Source of the DNA: an uncultured bacterium
Lineage (GTDB): Bacteria > Hydrothermota > E44-bin80
Direction of reading: 5' to 3'
NCBI GenBank assembly: GCA_964392665.1
Contig: CAYMQB010000010.1
Span: 895 to 64,894, forward strand
DNA length: 64,000 nucleotides
Under the pieces are notes generated by a model. The model made no database searches, was not told where the DNA came from, and worked only from the letters and a program-made list of their open reading frames with translations. Positions within the stretch are counted from its first letter, which is position 1, and each line of letters opens with the position of its first letter. Below are positions 10,291 to 54,188 of the stretch, one piece after another. The translations under genes and the position numbers were made by a program.

Positions 10291-10603
10291 ACTTATCCAA
10301 TTTTAGAATACCGATTTTGCAAATTTCTTCAAGATTTGAGTCTTTTACGGTATCCTTTAGTAGCGCATTAATCTTTTCTCCAGTACCCTCATCATCCGTA
10401 AATGAAAGAATAACCTTGGTATAAGCTCTTTTCCCTTCTATCTGGCTTCTCAATCCTGCAAATATGGGAACTTCGTAAGCGAGATAACGACTCATTGATT
10501 GCGCTTCAATCACTGAAGTTTCTTCTGCGCCTAATTCCGTCAATATTGAGATAATCTCGTCGAGATACTCGGCTTTGTATAAAAAAAGTACGAGCAGATA
10601 CAT
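10274..10603 (-). CDS. P-II-like (GlnB-fold / DUF190-like) small regulatory protein
   Basis: 109 aa; the N-terminal half 'LLVLFLYKAEYLDEIISILTELGAEETSVIEAQSMSR' matches the GlnB beta-alpha-beta pattern (KIEAIIKPFKLDDVREAL...GITGMTVTEV.G.GR); last gene of a minus-strand unit beginning with a CPA antiporter. Confidence 0.4.
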   Translation of the reverse strand: MYLLVLFLYKAEYLDEIISILTELGAEETSVIEAQSMSRYLAYEVPIFAGLRSQIEGKRAYTKVILSFTDDEGTGEKINALLKDTVKDSNLEEICKIGILKLDKFIGQA

Positions 10604-10806
10604 TTTACATCTCCTTTTCCCACGGCTGTGGTCTCTATCTCTTCTCTTGTTTGTGTAAGAACCTCAACCATCTCTTTTATGATTGAGTTATTATCCTCAC
10701 CGGTAAGTTGCGGTATTATATTCTCCTTTTTCACATAATCTCCTGATAGCACTTTAGCTCCCCCTATTTCGTTTTTTGCCTGATTCTCCGGCTTTTGTGA
10801 TTGCAA
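10540..10806 (-). CDS. Hypothetical small ORF between the antiporter and the P-II-like gene
   Basis: 88-aa ORF overlapping both neighbours by 53 and 64 nt; no recognisable motif; may be shorter (internal Met at 10671) or non-coding. Confidence 0.2.
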   Translation of the reverse strand: MQSQKPENQAKNEIGGAKVLSGDYVKKENIIPQLTGEDNNSIIKEMVEVLTQTREEIETTAVGKGDVKCICSYFFYTKPSISTRLSQY

Positions 10807-12140: not shown

Positions 12141-13379
12141 TTGAAAAAAATAATGGTAATTATTTTTGCATTGATTCTTTGTAGTTCGGTTCTTTCATAC
12201 TCGCAGGTTTCCGAAATGAGTAAGGAGTATCTGATTATGCAATCGCTGAGGAATGCTTCTCTTGCACCAGTAACATACACTCTTGGTCCCGGGGACGGAA
12301 TTGTATTGAACCTCTGGGGAAACACCAATGCAACATACAAACTTTCGGTATCACAAGATGGTAGCATATTTATCCCAAAATCATCCGGAGTTACCGCTTC
12401 GGCTATTCCTTTGTCAGCATATTCAGGAATTTCATCCTCTGAAAATGTGCCTTCTCTGGGAGAAGTCTATGCAGAAGGACTAACATTAGAGGAATTGAAA
12501 AAGGAGATTGAAAACAGGGTAAGCAAATATTTTCACGGTGTAAATGTTAATGTCTCGCTAACACGTTTGAGGATGTTTTCTGTTTCCATCCTTGGAAGCG
12601 TGAGGGACCCGGGTGTTTATTCAATAACACCCCTGTATAGATTATCAAACCTGCTTGACGTTGCAGGCGGAAATACGCCAACCGGGTCATACAGAAAAAT
12701 AACAATCAAAAGTGCGGATGGTTCATCAAAAACATACGACCTTTATCAGTTTCTATATAAGGCGAATTTAGAGGAGAATCCTTATATCAAAACTGGTGAT
12801 ATTGTGATGGTTCCACAGGCTCTTATGAGTGTTAAGGTAATGGGAAGGGTTTACAAACGAGGGAACTTTGAATTAAGAGAAGGGGAAAGGTTAAAAGATT
12901 TGATTGAATTTGCAAGAGGATTCCAGAGCAGGGGTTCATTGACAAGGCAAATTAAGGTTTATAACATAAAAAGTCCGGATGAAGTGGAAGAAATCGACCC
13001 GTATAAGCTTCTTATCGAGAATGACAGTTTAAGCAACATAGAGCTCAAAACAGGTGATGTTGTGACGGTTCCAACGGAGCCTTTCACAGTAACCGTTGTA
13101 GGTCAGGTAACTTTAGGCGGAAGTTTTGAATATGAGCCAGGAGCAGATTTTAACTACTACCTTGGTCTTGCCGGTGGTTATGGAGAGCGGGCAAACGAAG
13201 GCAATGTTCGTATAACAAGATGGGATGGAACAAGACTGAAATGGAAGACCGGTGTTGAGATAAAACCTGGCGATACAATAGTTATTGGGAGAGCCGAACT
13301 TAAAGGATGGAAAGATTACTTAGAGGTTACACTGAATGCTGCCAACCTACTCTTTATTATCTGGACCGTCTCAAGGTGA
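12141..13379 (+). CDS. wza: Polysaccharide export protein (Wza/KpsD family, Poly_export + SLBB domains)
   Basis: 'LGPGDGIVLNLWGN' Poly_export motif and repeated 'TGD-V-VP' SLBB-like segments. TTG start at 12141 is proposed because GGAGG lies 5 nt upstream and it yields a clean signal peptide 'LKKIMVIIFALILCSSVLS'; the ORF-track ATG is at 12099. Confidence 0.7.
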   Translation: MKKIMVIIFALILCSSVLSYSQVSEMSKEYLIMQSLRNASLAPVTYTLGPGDGIVLNLWGNTNATYKLSVSQDGSIFIPKSSGVTASAIPLSAYSGISSSENVPSLGEVYAEGLTLEELKKEIENRVSKYFHGVNVNVSLTRLRMFSVSILGSVRDPGVYSITPLYRLSNLLDVAGGNTPTGSYRKITIKSADGSSKTYDLYQFLYKANLEENPYIKTGDIVMVPQALMSVKVMGRVYKRGNFELREGERLKDLIEFARGFQSRGSLTRQIKVYNIKSPDEVEEIDPYKLLIENDSLSNIELKTGDVVTVPTEPFTVTVVGQVTLGGSFEYEPGADFNYYLGLAGGYGERANEGNVRITRWDGTRLKWKTGVEIKPGDTIVIGRAELKGWKDYLEVTLNAANLLFIIWTVSR

Positions 13380-13436
13380 AATCGCGTTTTTGGGAAGACA
13401 AAATTAGCTGCTTTTACACACATAAATCATAATAGT

Positions 13437-14450
13437 TCAGTCCTTTGTGTAGTTCCAGTATTCTTTGATATCTCTGCCAATCAATTCCGACAGTCCTCTA
13501 TTTTCCTTAAAAAAAAGTCTTTCTAAGAATCTTCTTGTTTCAATTTTCATTTTTGGGTATGACTTATTACTTGTGAAGTTAAATTTGCAATCGAGTTTGT
13601 CCATTCTTCTCCAGAACCTATTGGGTTTTGTCTTTGATAAATTGGGAAGATGTGAACCAAATTGTTGAGTAACGAGACGTTGAGTTCGGGAAATATAGTT
13701 ATAAAATATTTGGAGTTTTATGTAGCGGGGAATCATTGTTGCATTTTTATGGGTGTCAATTTTACTTATGTCTATGCTCGTCCTTAATCCAAGAAATTTG
13801 CATATTTCATCGATGTTCTGCTGAGTATTTTTTATGAAGTCTTCGAAGATTATAAATTTCATTTGTGAATCCGGAAAATAGTTTTTGTATCTTTCTATCT
13901 GCTGTTTATAAAGACTTCTTTTTAAGAGAGTTCCAGGCATATATCGAAGTGTGTTTTCAAAATCATAAATTGCATGTCCACCACGGACCAGATGCCAATA
14001 GTTAGAATATGTTCGAGAAACTGGGTTTCTTAACATAAATATAAGCTTTACATTGGGTATCAAATTGGCTATACGAGAAGGAGCTTTTGAAGATGCCATA
14101 TAAGTCGTTGAATCTTCACCTATTAATTGCCCTTTTTTCGCTTCCCTAAAGAATGATTTATACCACTTTAGATATTCTTCGAAATTCGTTTTGTAGTCGA
14201 AAAATTGCCATTCCTTAGATGTTTGAACGAAAAAATCGAAATTTTGCTCAATGTCATCTATGTCAAAAAACATTATTTCTCTATTTGGTATAAAAATGTC
14301 TTTGTGTTGGCTTAGAATGTAGTGAAGAGAAGTTGTTCCCGCTTTCATTGCACCAACAATAATAAAGGCAGGCAACCCTTGCCCATCTTTACCAAGCCTT
14401 CTCCCGTACTTTATATTTTTTTCATTCATACAGAATAAGAATTTACACAA
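13437..14450 (-). CDS. Sulfotransferase-domain protein (PAPS-dependent)
   Basis: 337 aa; 5'-PSB P-loop-like 'FIIVGAMKAGTTSLHYIL', then 'RNPVSRTYSNYWH' (3'-PB region); sits inside a polysaccharide locus. Confidence 0.7.
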   Translation of the reverse strand: MCKFLFCMNEKNIKYGRRLGKDGQGLPAFIIVGAMKAGTTSLHYILSQHKDIFIPNREIMFFDIDDIEQNFDFFVQTSKEWQFFDYKTNFEEYLKWYKSFFREAKKGQLIGEDSTTYMASSKAPSRIANLIPNVKLIFMLRNPVSRTYSNYWHLVRGGHAIYDFENTLRYMPGTLLKRSLYKQQIERYKNYFPDSQMKFIIFEDFIKNTQQNIDEICKFLGLRTSIDISKIDTHKNATMIPRYIKLQIFYNYISRTQRLVTQQFGSHLPNLSKTKPNRFWRRMDKLDCKFNFTSNKSYPKMKIETRRFLERLFFKENRGLSELIGRDIKEYWNYTKD

Positions 14451-28003: not shown

Positions 28004-28009
28004 GCAATA

Positions 28010-28433
28010 ATGAATAAACCTATTATTCTTGTTGTTGGGGCAAGACCCAATTTTGTTAAGGCTTCTCCTCTCTTCAACGCAATGAGAGAAAGAAAGATAA
28101 ATACTATTCTAATTCATACGGGTCAACATTATGATTATGAATTGTCCAAAACATTCTTTGAGGATTTTAGCCTGGGTAAACCCGACATAAATCTTGAGGT
28201 GAGTTCTGGAAATCATGGTGAACAGACAGGTAGGACTCCGGAGTTACGATAGAAGAATGCCAGAAGAGATAAACCGTGTGCTTACAGATGCTATTGCGGA
28301 TTATTTATTTACGCCTTCGTTGAATGCGAATGAAAATCTTAAGAAAGAAGGTATTGCGGATGAACAAATCTTTTTTGTAGGGAACATTATGATAGATTCG
28401 CTGGTAAAACATCTACCGCTTATGTGGACATAA
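28010..28433 (+). pseudogene. Decayed UDP-N-acetylglucosamine 2-epimerase (wecB-like) remnant: N-terminal ~150 aa only, internally deleted and frameshifted
   Basis: Two short ORFs, 28010-28252 and 28215-28433. The first, 'ILVVGARPNFVKASPL...IHTGQHYDYELSKTFF...NLEVSSGNHGEQTG', matches the WecB N-terminus. The second, 'LRSYDRRMPEEINRVLTD', matches WecB at about residues 125-180. About 45 aa between them are missing and the whole C-terminal domain is absent; ~55% identical to the intact convergent wecB. Confidence 0.6.
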
Positions 28434-36334: not shown

Positions 36335-36582
36335 TATAACCTATCGGATGAGGAATTTCAAGAAGTTTTTTAAAAAACATTAGCCACGGTTACTACACGG
36401 TAAAACACAATATCAAGGTTAAACTAATAAAACCAATCCAACCAACACCAAACCAATTTTACCACAGAGACGCAGAGAAAATACTTATTTCAAGGTTTAA
36501 ACCAATTAAACAAAACAAATAAACAGGGATTGAAAGAGAACTTAAAGAGATTTCTCAATCAGTCGGGACTGGGAAGTTTTTC

Positions 36583-36924: not shown

Positions 36925-37062
36925 TATTTTTTATACTATTCATTGCGTGATTTGTCAAGAGAAAAATGTGGAGAAACTTCTTCTTAGATTCTTCCAAAGT
37001 CAATATGGAAAGGATTACTCAGAATGACAGCTTGCTCGATCTATTCGGTTTGTTTGGTTTAC

Positions 37063-46711: not shown

Positions 46712-47914
46712 ATGAGCGACATAAGGACATTAAGGCTGAAATCTGTTGAAGAATTGAAAAGTGAGATGGCAAAAATTGGAGTTGACACCGGATGTATCGA
46801 TTCACTTGCATTGAAAGGCAAATTCACCGTATTCAAAATATCGAACTTAAGCCCGGCGTGCTGCAATATCATCAAACAAACCGCGCTTTCGAGCGGAACC
46901 GATGCAGCTGTTAATCGAGATGTGATAACCGGTAAGAAAAAGAGTTCGTCGCTTCTTCTATTTGGAAGTCTTAAGGAGATTGAAAGGGTTGCAGAAAAAC
47001 TACAAGGTCAACCTTTCGGGCTTGGAGAAATTTCGGAAAAACTTCTCCTCAATATCAGGCAAAATGGAGAGACAAGGATTTTTAAGTTTGCACATAGGCA
47101 GATGGAACTGGGGAAGAGAGTTTACATTATGGGCGTTCTGAATGTTACAATCGATTCTTTCTCAGACGGCGGAAAGTATTTTGAAAAATCAAAGGCAGTG
47201 GAAAAAGCATTTGAGATGGTAGAAGATGGCGCGGATATTGTAGATATTGGAGGGGAATCGAGTCGACCAGGTTCGGAATCTATTTCACAGGAACGGGAGA
47301 TGGAAAGGGTAATTCCCGTTATTGACGAGCTAAAGGGAAAAATAAAGGCTGGCATCTCAGTCGATACGTGTAAAAGTGCTGTGGCATCCGAGGCTATCAA
47401 GAGTGGTGCCGAGATAGTAAACGATATAAGTGGTTTAAGATTTGATGAAAGGATGAAGGAAATAATAAAAGAAGCACAGGTGGGTATTGTAATAATGCAT
47501 ATGTTAGGAAATCCGGAGAATATGCAGGATAATCCTTACTATGAAGACACGATTCAGGAGATTTACGATTTTCTAAAAAGGAGAACAGAGTATGCTGTAG
47601 GTTTCGGAATAGAAAAGGAAAGGATTATAATCGATCCTGGAATAGGTTTTGGCAAAAGAGTTAGTGATAACTTAGAAATACTTGACAGATGTTCTGAATT
47701 TAAGTCATTGGGATTCCCCGTGCTTGTCGGTGCATCGAGGAAGTCGTTTATAGGGAAGACATTGAATCTTCCTGTTCAAGAACGACTCGAGGGAAGTCTT
47801 GCTTCCTGTGCGATTGCACTTGAGGGAGGAGTTGATATTCTGAGAGTTCATGATGTTTGTGAAACCAGGAAATTCGTTGATATGTTTGAAAGCATAAAAG
47901 GGAGAAAGTTTTAG
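46712..47914 (+). CDS. folP: Dihydropteroate synthase with a ~125-aa N-terminal extension of unknown function
   Basis: The C-terminal ~275 aa form the pterin-binding TIM barrel ('ILNVTIDSFSDGG', 'DIGGESSRPG', 'DPGIGFGK'). The N-terminal 'MSDIRTLRLKSVEEL...GQPFGLGEI' has no counterpart in canonical FolP. Confidence 0.8.
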   Translation: MSDIRTLRLKSVEELKSEMAKIGVDTGCIDSLALKGKFTVFKISNLSPACCNIIKQTALSSGTDAAVNRDVITGKKKSSSLLLFGSLKEIERVAEKLQGQPFGLGEISEKLLLNIRQNGETRIFKFAHRQMELGKRVYIMGVLNVTIDSFSDGGKYFEKSKAVEKAFEMVEDGADIVDIGGESSRPGSESISQEREMERVIPVIDELKGKIKAGISVDTCKSAVASEAIKSGAEIVNDISGLRFDERMKEIIKEAQVGIVIMHMLGNPENMQDNPYYEDTIQEIYDFLKRRTEYAVGFGIEKERIIIDPGIGFGKRVSDNLEILDRCSEFKSLGFPVLVGASRKSFIGKTLNLPVQERLEGSLASCAIALEGGVDILRVHDVCETRKFVDMFESIKGRKF

Positions 47915-48660
47915 TGCACTATATCCAGTTTAGACTGGTAGATTTCATAGATATAATTATTGTTGCTTTCATTTTCTATCAGATTCTGAAATTCGTTAAA
48001 GGAACGAGAGCAATACAGATGATTATCGGGTTAGTGTTTGTCCTGGTTTTTGCTCTTATTGCAAACATATGGCAACTGCAAGGACTCAGGTGGATTGTCG
48101 ACGGAGTTAAGACGATATGGATTATTGCATTTGTCATTGTGTTCCAGCCGGAGATTCGTAGGGCGTTGACAAATATTGGCAAGACCCGGCTTATAAGATT
48201 TTTTCTAAAAGAAACGAGTGAAAAAACCATCGATGAACTTGTTAAATCTGCCAACACTTTGAGTAAGAGGGGGCTTGGAGGACTTGTAGTGGTGAAGCGA
48301 AAGGTTGGTTTGAAAGGATATCTGGAAACAGGTAAGTCTCTTGAAGCAAAAGTTTCTTCAGACCTTATTGTGACTATATTTTCGCCGTATTCTCCACTGC
48401 ACGATGGTGCAGTCGTTGTAGAAGGAGACATTATTATTGCGGCGGGCTGTATTCTTCCTCTATCACCAAATCCATCCCTTGATGTAGCTGTGGGAACAAG
48501 ACATAGAGCTGCTCTGGGTATTACAGAGGAGAGCGATGCAGTTGTAATTCTTGTTTCTGAGGAGACGAGAGAAATATCGTTTGCTCACAAAGGTAAATTA
48601 CTCAGAGGAATGGATTCCGTTAGTTTAAAAAGGAATCTTGAAAAGGCAATGAGATATTAG
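47914..48660 (+). CDS. cdaA: Membrane-anchored diadenylate cyclase (c-di-AMP synthase CdaA/DacA)
   Basis: 248 aa; 3 N-terminal TM helices, DAC domain with 'HDGAVVV' and 'GTRHRAALGI' motifs. Confidence 0.8.
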   Translation: MHYIQFRLVDFIDIIIVAFIFYQILKFVKGTRAIQMIIGLVFVLVFALIANIWQLQGLRWIVDGVKTIWIIAFVIVFQPEIRRALTNIGKTRLIRFFLKETSEKTIDELVKSANTLSKRGLGGLVVVKRKVGLKGYLETGKSLEAKVSSDLIVTIFSPYSPLHDGAVVVEGDIIIAAGCILPLSPNPSLDVAVGTRHRAALGITEESDAVVILVSEETREISFAHKGKLLRGMDSVSLKRNLEKAMRY

Positions 48661-48827
48661 AGACGGAAGAGAGAAGAGGGAAACGGAGAAACGGCGAGAG
48701 GCGAGGAGAAAAATTGTGTATATTCATAGTGTATTTAGTAGTATATTTGTAGTGTATTTATTGTTTACAATGAATAACGGTCAGTAAATACACAGTGAAG
48801 CGAATATACGCAGAATGCAAATAACCT

Positions 48828-48899
48828 AATTGACCAATGACCAATAACAAAGTATGTCTCTGTGGTGAAATTTGTATCGAAATTACGAAATTGGAAATT
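48828..48899 (+). repeat. Copy 1 of a ~70-nt intergenic direct repeat (AATTGACCAATGACCAATAACAAAGTATGTCTCTGTGGTGAAATTTGTATCGAAATTACGAAATTGGAAATT)
   Basis: About 95% identical to copy 2 at 49096-49166; both lie in non-coding sequence upstream of the DUF2723 gene. Confidence 0.85.
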
Positions 48900-49095
48900 A
48901 TGAATATGAGATTGCTTCACAAGAAATACGAGAGAAATATTCGCAATGACGAACTGAAAGACAGAGAAGTGATAAGAGAAGAGAGAGAGGGTAGGCGCAG
49001 GCTTTAGCCTGCGAAAGAAAATATGAGATTGTTTGCATAGTTAGAGCAAAGAAGAGGAGCTCGCAATGACAGTATTCGGTAAAACCACTAATGCC

Positions 49096-49166
49096 AATTG
49101 ACCAATAACCAATAACAAAGTATGTCTCTGTGGTGAAATTGTTATCGAAATTAGGAAATTGGAAAA
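49096..49166 (+). repeat. Copy 2 of the ~70-nt intergenic direct repeat
   Basis: AATTGACCAATAACCAATAACAAAGTATGTCTCTGTGGTGAAATTGTTATCGAAATTAGGAAATTGGAAA; differs from copy 1 at about 4 positions. Confidence 0.85.
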
Positions 49167-49188
49167 ATGGAAATTAAAAACAAAACAG

Positions 49189-49241
49189 TAACTAATAACT
49201 AATGACCAATAACTAATGACCAATAACTAATGATCAATAAC
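49189..49241 (+). repeat. Tandem 14-mer array (TAACTAATGACCAA x about 3.5) sharing the ACCAATAAC core of the 70-nt repeats
   Basis: taactaa-TAACTAATGACCAA-TAACTAATGACCAA-TAACTAATGATCAA-taacc, ending 24 nt before the AAGGAG SD of the 49265 gene. Confidence 0.85.
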
Positions 49242-49264
49242 CAGGTTGTAACAGAAAAGGAGAT

Positions 49265-54116: not shown

Positions 54117-54188
54117 GGGATTTCCAGCACTCGGAATGACAAACTAAACTGTGTCAACTAAGCAAACTATGTAAAGAGTTGATGGAAA

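Follow-up and report, generated by a model that had tools for sequence, protein, structure and literature searches.

In the 64-kb window (the whole stretch of 64,000 nucleotides analysed here), cdaA (47914-48660; Pfam DAC and CdaA_N) is separated from a gene for a DUF2723/TMEM260-like tetratricopeptide repeat (TPR) protein by a repeat-filled spacer of 604 nt. The genes around it are co-directional, in the order ftsH, folE, folP, cdaA, spacer, DUF2723, extracytoplasmic function (ECF) sigma factor, anti-sigma factor and HtrA. No other gap between co-directional genes of the window is as long; a first-pass annotation made from the sequence had called the spacer unusually long. Its G+C content is 35% against 38% for the window. 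For the DUF2723 gene the most likely start is ATG 49268, behind the ribosome-binding site (RBS) AAAAGGAG at 49255-49262 (GGAG at 49259-49262); the sequence and the relatives favoured this codon over GTG 49265, which had been taken as the start. We compared the spacer with metagenome loci and contigs that carry the labels L001, L005, L028 and so on. The reading that we favour, with a probability of about 0.68, is that the spacer is a mosaic of small DNA repeat modules, similar to a bacterial interspersed mosaic element (BIME), and that these modules are dispersed in the intergenic regions of a probably Cloacimonadota-like lineage. The lineage name serves as a label only, one homologue at 71% identity having been named Candidatus Cloacimonadota by its source.

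The spacer was resolved into ten parts. GA-rich tract 1 (48661-48713, plus strand) was read from the sequence directly after the cdaA stop codon, and is followed by an AT-rich imperfect inverted repeat (48715-48812) that comprises the inverted pairs I1-I3, an array detected by Tandem Repeats Finder (TRF) of an 11-12-nt unit, GTAGTRTATTT, at 48718-48760, and complementary arms of 11-15 nt. Its outer arms (11 nt at 48715-48725 and 48802-48812) are 91% complementary, and no target duplication was identified around them. Within this module GTGTATTTA occurs exactly at 48729 and 48752 and has an inverted partner at 48784-48793; the third copy that had been counted is a variant, GTATATTTG. The 70-nt unit A, made up of TGACCAA heptamers, a core GTCTCTGTGGTGAAAT and CGAAATTA octamer repeats, is present twice on the plus strand, at 48828-48897 and 49096-49165, and the copies are 94% identical (blastn E = 1.6e-25). 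What had been described as a unit of about 55 nt occurring twice proved to be two copies with common ends (5' ends of 15 nt at 48903/49020, 93%; 3' ends of 10 nt at 48941/49061, 100%) around unrelated inner stretches of 25-29 nt. These copies contain two hairpin repeats on the minus strand that resemble the SRM elements discussed below. Unit B (48908-48950) reads GTCATTGCGAA...GAAGCAATCTC on the minus strand and has an AT-rich interior without a stable stem, and unit B' (49025-49070) keeps a closing ATTG/CAAT stem and an inner GAGC/GCTC stem.

Between B and B' lie GA-rich tract 2 (48955-48990, plus strand), which is homologous to the tract preceding the hairpin in L005, and hairpin H (48990-49013, plus strand), in which a GGTAG head precedes the folded CGCAGGC-TTTA-GCCTGCG. 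The hairpin at 48997-49012 had been recognized before as GCAGGC-TTTA-GCCTGC, and its stem is in fact 7 bp long (CGCAGGC/GCCTGCG). Unit B' is followed by a linker (49071-49095, plus strand) common only to the closest relative (L005/L006), by unit A copy 2 and by a heptamer/14-mer tandem of TAACTAATGACCAA (49189-49243, plus strand) that ends 12 nt before the RBS; TRF placed the 14-mer array at 49194-49241, with 3.4 copies and 97% matches. The two GA-rich tracts, the duplicated 70-nt unit, the 14-mer tandem and the inverted partner had thus all been recognized correctly in the first-pass annotation. Its 9-mer, said to recur at least 8 times, was found less often (ACCAATAAC exactly 5 times, ACCAATRA 6 times, and GACCAATRAC with at most one mismatch 7 times in the region). 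The spacer was also said to hold no open reading frame (ORF) longer than 30 codons, yet ORFs of 56, 60, 51 and 46 aa are present; none of them gave a significant Pfam match, and they are not kept in relatives.

Copies of the repeats were also found outside the spacer, both elsewhere in the window and in relatives, as well as in many metagenome contigs. Among the modules, the AT-rich inverted repeat, the GA tract, the heptamers and the unit A core CTCTGTGGTGAAAT are present in other intergenic regions of relatives and of the window, in either orientation. In L017/L018 the spacer between acn and smpB, a non-orthologous site, carries several modules, all of them on the opposite strand. They are the AT-rich module (90% identical over 62 nt), ACCAAT-type repeats, CGAAAT repeats, the unit A core CTCTGTGTCTCTGTGGTGAAAT, and CGAAATCACGAAAATGGAAATTACGAAA ahead of a unit B that has a G+C inner hairpin; the core of unit A recurs at L017 16442-16522. 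Upstream of an unrelated gene in L028, a GA tract again directly follows a stop codon (88% identical to tract 1 over 33 nt), and the same spacer holds a TTGTTTACAA...AAATACAC...GCGAATTTACG part and a heptamer run that, like the tandem of the window, adjoins the RBS (82-84% identical). The 3' half of the AT-rich module is 76% identical to L028 4147-4233, and tracts similar to GA tract 1 follow cdaA in L007 and L017. Elsewhere in the window, degenerate module copies lie at 882-902, at 934-953 (H-like) and, in an intergenic region, at 54117-54149, and the unit A core stands between ACCAA repeats at 36453-36477 on the minus strand. A unit-B-type copy at 36986-37030, 83% identical to an L028 copy, brings the unit B copies of the window to three; the unit-B-type hairpins in these other intergenic regions of the window have ATTCT/AGAAT or ATTTCC/GGAAT stems. 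Unit B itself is 88-89% identical to copies in L007 and L049. The orientation of the modules relative to neighbouring genes is not constant, which argues against a promoter, terminator or leader role of the modules as such.

Copies of hairpin H (GGTAGNCGCAGGCTTTAGCCTGCG) that retain the GTAG head are present in L005, L008, L017 and L028 (beside unit B), in L135, where three lie within 1.7 kb, and in three IMG/VR contigs. H is 23-24 nt overall and consists of G-GTAG-GC plus a perfect 7-bp stem; the head of the copies reads GGTAGNC, with GTAG kept in nearly all. GGTAGGCGCAGGCTTTAGCCTGCG is a second dispersed module, similar to repetitive extragenic palindromes (REPs). H lies 5-15 nt upstream of an RBS and ATG at L140 8554-8600 and 10160-10200 (viral-contig genes) and at L008 736-780, where it may serve secondarily to stabilise or process the 5' end. 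Apart from unit B and H, the mosaic draws on other lineage-specific modules, namely the GA tracts, the AT-rich inverted repeat and the CTCTGTGGTGAAAT unit.

The order of genes from cdaA to DUF2723 is kept in relatives, and the spacer between them ranges from 29 to 604 nt. It measures 223 nt in L005 (DUF2723 90% identical to that of the window), 255 nt in L007 (72%), 97 nt in L008 (the same DUF2723 protein as L007), 77 nt in L009 (72%), 495 nt in L011 (69%), 29 nt in L013/L016 (70%) and 288 nt in L017/L018 (71%). Its content varies as much. L005 has AGACYRR heptamers, a GA tract, hairpin H, unit B' and the linker; L007 has GCTGTA-type repeats, unit B and four ACTAAAYAA; L008 has GCACAAGA repeats and H only; and L017 has a GA tract, GCTGTAAAC repeats, H and a unit B with an inserted hairpin. 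The short tandem unit beside the RBS is another sequence in each relative and is absent from L013. L007 and L008, whose DUF2723 proteins are identical, have spacers that are alike in the last ~18 nt only. Since the spacer varies both in length and in module content, it is dispensable and fast-changing, and since it measures only 29 nt in L013/L016, cdaA and DUF2723 are probably co-transcribed there. The 495-nt spacer of L011 (9506-10000) is built of other repeats, namely CCCCGTTAG/AACGGGG pairs, a TTGTATATTG run and a G+C hairpin, and these recur in the same contig at 785-871 and 14048-14075.

Comparison with L005 indicated how the version in the window may have been assembled. The core of GA tract 2, H, B' and linker is kept in both, and the window has two additional blocks. 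Block 1 (48661 to ~48950) would comprise GA tract 1, the AT-rich module, unit A and unit B, a composite that resembles those in L017 and L028. Block 2 (~49117-49240) would comprise the core of unit A copy 2 and the heptamer/14-mer run; the segment that is extra relative to L005 (unit A copy 2 with 49166-49240) is bounded by the direct repeat CAATAAC, as would be expected if it had been inserted with target duplication, or equally if L005 had lost it by a microhomology deletion. A sign of ongoing change was observed in L017 and L018, whose flanks are otherwise identical and which differ by a clean 58-nt indel inside the inner hairpin of a unit B copy (L017 16640-16900 versus L018 16640-16960). 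The extra piece has small hairpins of its own, which suggests the nested insertion of a still smaller element.

The modules were then set against the divergence of the surrounding genes. At four-fold degenerate sites the window is 51-52% identical to L005 and 31-41% identical to L007/L017, which amounts to saturation, whereas modules are 88-96% identical across such genomes; a range of 88-94% includes non-orthologous loci. The proposal of a REP-like element or miniature inverted-repeat transposable element (MITE) in the first-pass annotation is upheld by the copies at other places, the check that the annotation itself had named. Its qualification as "decayed" is doubtful in view of how much more the modules are conserved than synonymous sites. 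In a 9-kb alignment with L005, coding bins were 58-93% identical, other spacers 48-60%, and the bin 49000-49100 reached 96%, the highest of all 100-nt bins; a 141-nt stretch that includes unit B' is 93.6% identical. The raised identity continues from the spacer into the DUF2723 gene, where the fraction of identical codons is 0.83 in the first 40 codons and 0.56 in the rest. In twenty other pairings, identical-codon usage in the first 40 codons was not generally raised. The tract runs from ~48982 to ~49390 in the window (L005 2839-3120), is 94-96% identical in the spacer core and is particular to this pair, which points to recombination rather than to general selection on a leader. The orthologous core common to L005 is thus best read as a recent recombination tract of ~400 nt, while the likeness of the other modules across loci and species requires mobility, exchange or constraint.

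The family to which unit B belongs was traced by scanning metagenomes with the pattern TATGAGATTGCTTC-N(20-50)-CAATGAC. Matches were found in at least 120 contigs with a G+C content of 27-68%, against a rough chance expectation of ~14. They have in common GAGATTGC(TTCG or CACG), a variable G+C hairpin and CTCGCAATGAC, and the family takes the form GAGATTGCTTCG-(variable, covarying stem)-CTCGCAATGAC. Neither cdaA nor DUF2723 was found near the copies among the 120 matches listed. A relaxed pattern gave 323 copies (276 distinct) in 724 kb, many of which are inverted doublets ~10-25 nt apart, with up to 21 in one contig. The ATTGC/GCAAT helix that closes the hairpin does not vary, and compensatory changes were seen at four of the inner pairs. 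Position weight matrices (PWMs) of the termini were built from copies with G+C-rich centres, and the termini were scored as pairs. Unit B scored 37.2 bits and B' 25.9 bits, compared with best scores in 200 second-order-Markov simulated windows of 12.4 on average, 18.1 at the 95th percentile and 25.6 at the maximum. With an nhmmer profile of the family, both ends of the unit were recovered as separate weak local matches only (E 1 to 9). Rfam gave nothing on 20 canonical family loci except one tRNA, and literature matched by raw sequence or by translated repeat peptides yielded primers and noise only.

When the ORFs around the 120 matches listed were clustered, the top cluster consisted of GIY-YIG proteins of ~95 aa (Pfam PF01541). 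In 10-11 of these 120 matches the GIY-YIG gene lies exactly between an inverted pair of the repeat, for example at L027 6415-6804, L053 2232-2621, L034 4095-4530, L095 858-1240 and L105 1520-1905. The layout is GTCATTGCGAG-stem-GAAGCAATCTC, 5-25 nt, and a gene running from ATG to TTATGA, where GATTGCTTCG-stem-CTCGCAATGAC follows immediately; the stop codon is inside TATGAGATTGC, and the bracketing inverted hairpins read GTCATTGCGAG...GCAATCTC. A search that started from the protein recovered 46 GIY-YIG homologues in IMG/VR contigs. Complementary flanks, defined as scoring above the 95th percentile of mismatched-flank controls, were present in 22 of 27 close homologues and in 0 of 11 distant ones, and several homologues are flanked by the canonical Neisseria-type NTS GTCATTCCCGCGAAGGCGGGAATCC.

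Such an arrangement is known from the Ssn family, site-specific nucleases of single-strand DNA (ssDNA) that are ~94 aa long and consist of a single GIY-YIG domain. Their genes are bracketed by NTS/SRM hairpins, and one genome may carry as many as hundreds of these (Chenal et al. 2025, PMC11893778). Natural transformation of N. meningitidis is modulated by NTS and SsnA, and the NTS/SRM-Ssn system was likened by its authors to REP/BIME with RAYT transposases (PMC11893778). Because inverted copies bracket GIY-YIG genes, the unit B family appears to be the counterpart of the NTS/SRM hairpins, which Ssn nucleases recognise and cut in single-stranded form. The family is likewise multi-copy and intergenic, its inverted copies elsewhere bracket a single-domain gene of ~95 aa as in NTS-ssnA-NTS, and the encoded proteins are homologous to those flanked by GTCATTCCCGCGAAGGCGGGAATCC. 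This homology and the PF01541 match make them putative members of the small cd10448-type GIY-YIG group that is expected beside SRM repeats. B and B' share with NTS/SRM a conserved GTC, an ATTxC...GxAAT palindrome around a variable centre, and then C. Measured against the SRM architecture (GTC 5' of a 20-50-nt palindrome and C 3' of it), unit B has every element on the minus strand (GTCATTGC...GCAATC) and B' has one mismatch, in its 3' half (ACAATC). The family differs from NTS/SRM in that its ATTGC/GCAAT palindrome is followed by an internal loop and a freely varying distal stem, and the window copies differ further by their AT-rich centres. On these comparisons unit B would be the same kind of element as NTS/SRM, of a sequence class outside the published pattern. 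More tentatively, GTCATTGCGAG-stem-GAAGCAATCTC might represent a distinct, very widespread Ssn/SRM specificity class, of which a derived AT-rich version travels with the other modules (hairpin H, the AT-rich inverted repeat, the CTCTGTGGTGAAAT unit) as a recombination-prone mosaic that would move from locus to locus and from species to species.

Several observations weigh against this reading of the spacer. Neither the window nor any locus of the clade was found to carry a GIY-YIG or Ssn gene. The published SRM search sequence, HGTCWYN(0-2)YYVSBRHN(0-5)WNVSBRGN(0-2)RNCYNB, had 0 matches in the window and 0 among the 276 family copies, while the NTS control was matched. Unit B lacks the canonical G+C inner stem and folds no better than shuffled sequences, and B and B' have the same orientation, so that they form no inverted doublet. 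The PWM test is in part circular, since the pattern used to retrieve the family had itself been derived from the window. Finally, the high identity of the modules could reflect selection for function rather than mobility or recombination.

A rival reading is that part of the spacer, with the core of H, B' and linker (48982-49121) as the candidate, is a cis-acting RNA (a 5' leader or a processing or stability element) or a small RNA (sRNA) that controls the genes for DUF2723, ECF sigma factor, anti-sigma factor and HtrA. The exceptional identity of the bin 49000-49100 to L005 and the position of H a few nucleotides upstream of an RBS and ATG in L008 and twice in L140 would fit such an element. 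Structure was judged by folding against shuffled sequences. The AT-rich inverted repeat is the only clearly structured part (z = -3.65) and the minus strand of the spacer reached z = -2.2, but the plus strand of the spacer did not stand out (z = -0.69), nor did unit A (z = +0.15 and +0.9) or unit B (z = -0.07). At gathering thresholds, Rfam 15 matched nothing anywhere in the window, and permissive settings on the region returned only chance-level matches to eukaryotic small nucleolar RNAs and microRNAs, far below threshold; a scan of the spacer for promoter-like sites on the plus strand and for terminator-like sites was equally negative. H or B is missing in relatives despite an identical downstream protein, the spacer of L013/L016 is just 29 nt, and in L017 the modules are antisense to neighbouring genes. 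The identity to L005, moreover, continues at synonymous sites into the first 40 codons in this pair only, as expected of a recombination tract. We therefore regard an RNA element as unlikely, and the duplicated sRNA genes proposed in the first-pass annotation found no backing, given the lack of an Rfam family, the lack of a significant unit A fold and the absence of unit A from the L005 spacer. Individual candidates were tried and set aside. A promoter in unit A (TTGACC-N17-TATGTC, also in L005) is weak, its -10 element being without the final T of the genome's evident promoters. An upstream ORF or leader peptide from ATG 48906 (MRLLHKKYERNIRNDEL; MRLLQKKYEENTHNDEL in L007) differs in length and end in every relative, its preceding RBS is not conserved, and its "conserved" residues are one frame of the repeat ends. 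A fossil GIY-YIG gene in unit A was rejected for its tblastn E of 0.024 (in a 700-nt search space), its stop codons and its wrong register.

Two DNA-level alternatives were weighed alongside. The mosaic might itself be a hotspot of recombination or ssDNA processing, in which hairpins cut by an Ssn nuclease would bias the uptake and exchange of the flanking genes, as for Neisseria NTS/dRS3. The pair-specific tract shared with L005, the swap of the entire spacer between L007 and L008, and the effect of NTS/SsnA on natural transformation in N. meningitidis (PMC11893778) all lend themselves to this view. Three independent Logan assemblies with an identical CdaA (L001-L003) also end inside the spacer, at 48709 or 48766, which is consistent with strain-level heterogeneity; such contig breaks may equally be trivial (low coverage, strain mixtures). 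The lineage would have to be competent, however, a single recombination tract is an anecdote, and that no ssn gene was found in the window or the clade loci counts against a hotspot as well, so that we consider it improbable. Far less probable still is that the direct repeats form an iteron array or a transcription-factor binding-site array. Iterons are regularly spaced direct repeats of 17-22 bp beside a rep gene or an origin. The spacer resembles plasmid iterons in its short direct repeats in tandem, with 3.4 copies of the 14-mer just upstream of the DUF2723 gene, and the ACCAAT-type motif on the plus strand is confined to the spacer region. The unit is 14 nt long, however, and it stands in a housekeeping operon of conserved gene order, without a rep gene, another replication initiator gene or plasmid context; an origin of replication at the spacer was rejected for want of dnaA context. 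GACCAATRAC with one mismatch is weakly enriched across the window (12 matches versus 7.0 expected), and the tandem unit is not conserved among relatives, being AGACYRR in L005, ACTAAAYAA in L007, GCACAAGA in L008 and absent from L013.

We thus return to the mosaic of dispersed modules, which would act at the DNA level. In the scheme that we propose, modules would be inserted or copied into the spacer, some would be duplicated locally (the two copies of A, B and B'), slippage would expand the heptamers and the 14-mer, and modules would be lost between short direct repeats such as CAATAAC or exchanged with relatives by recombination. An Ssn-type nuclease would have made the B copies or would maintain them, and the spacer would merely be transcribed through in the ftsH-folE-folP-cdaA-DUF2723 operon, without a dedicated function.

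Among known mosaics, the pneumococcal BOX and the Neisseria Correia/dRS3 elements are intergenic composites of a few types of short modules in variable number and order. The spacer differs from them in that defined terminal inverted repeats with target duplication were not found in it, and to our knowledge its modules have no sequence relationship to BOX or Correia/dRS3 repeats. The likeness to REP/BIME is closer. Between co-directional genes, the spacer combines short palindromic modules with linkers in a cluster of changing composition, its module content differs among strains, and the G+C palindrome of H is preceded on its 5' side by a GTAG head. GTAG 5' of the palindrome is a hallmark of REPs, which in E. 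coli are imperfect palindromes of 30-40 nt (Ton-Hoang et al. 2012, PMC3333891). H differs from these in its 23 nt and its perfect stem; REP/iREP pairing is not seen, with a single H and with B and B' co-oriented; and unit B is linked to a nuclease of the GIY-YIG type instead of the Y1 type of RAYT (TnpA-REP) transposases.

If the more tentative reading of a distinct Ssn/SRM specificity class is correct, Ssn-type ssDNA-nuclease biology would extend to uncultivated FCB-group bacteria, and the 88-96% identity of modules in the face of saturated synonymous sites would be explained. A large sequence class of the Ssn/SRM system appears to lie beyond the published search pattern, and in a little-studied phylum such hairpins cluster with other modules into hypervariable spacers. 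Site-specific ssDNA nucleases have been proposed as tools, and their range would gain a new specificity if GTCATTGC-type hairpins are cut by the cognate nucleases. For annotation, neither an sRNA gene nor a riboswitch nor an origin should be assigned to the spacer, and spacer ORFs such as MRLL...RND are one reading frame of the repeat and not genes.

Two further observations concern coding sequence. In L028 a 451-aa open frame (12951-14307) runs stop-free through two unit B copies, hairpin H and an inverted copy, and its C-terminus resembles proteins of other loci that are sorted by the type IX secretion system (T9SS); it may be a coding gene into which repeats were inserted in frame, or its start may have been called too far upstream. 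In the window, the long gaps between ORFs at 28004-28412 and 10291-10753 look coding-like by eye and may be frameshifted or unlisted genes.

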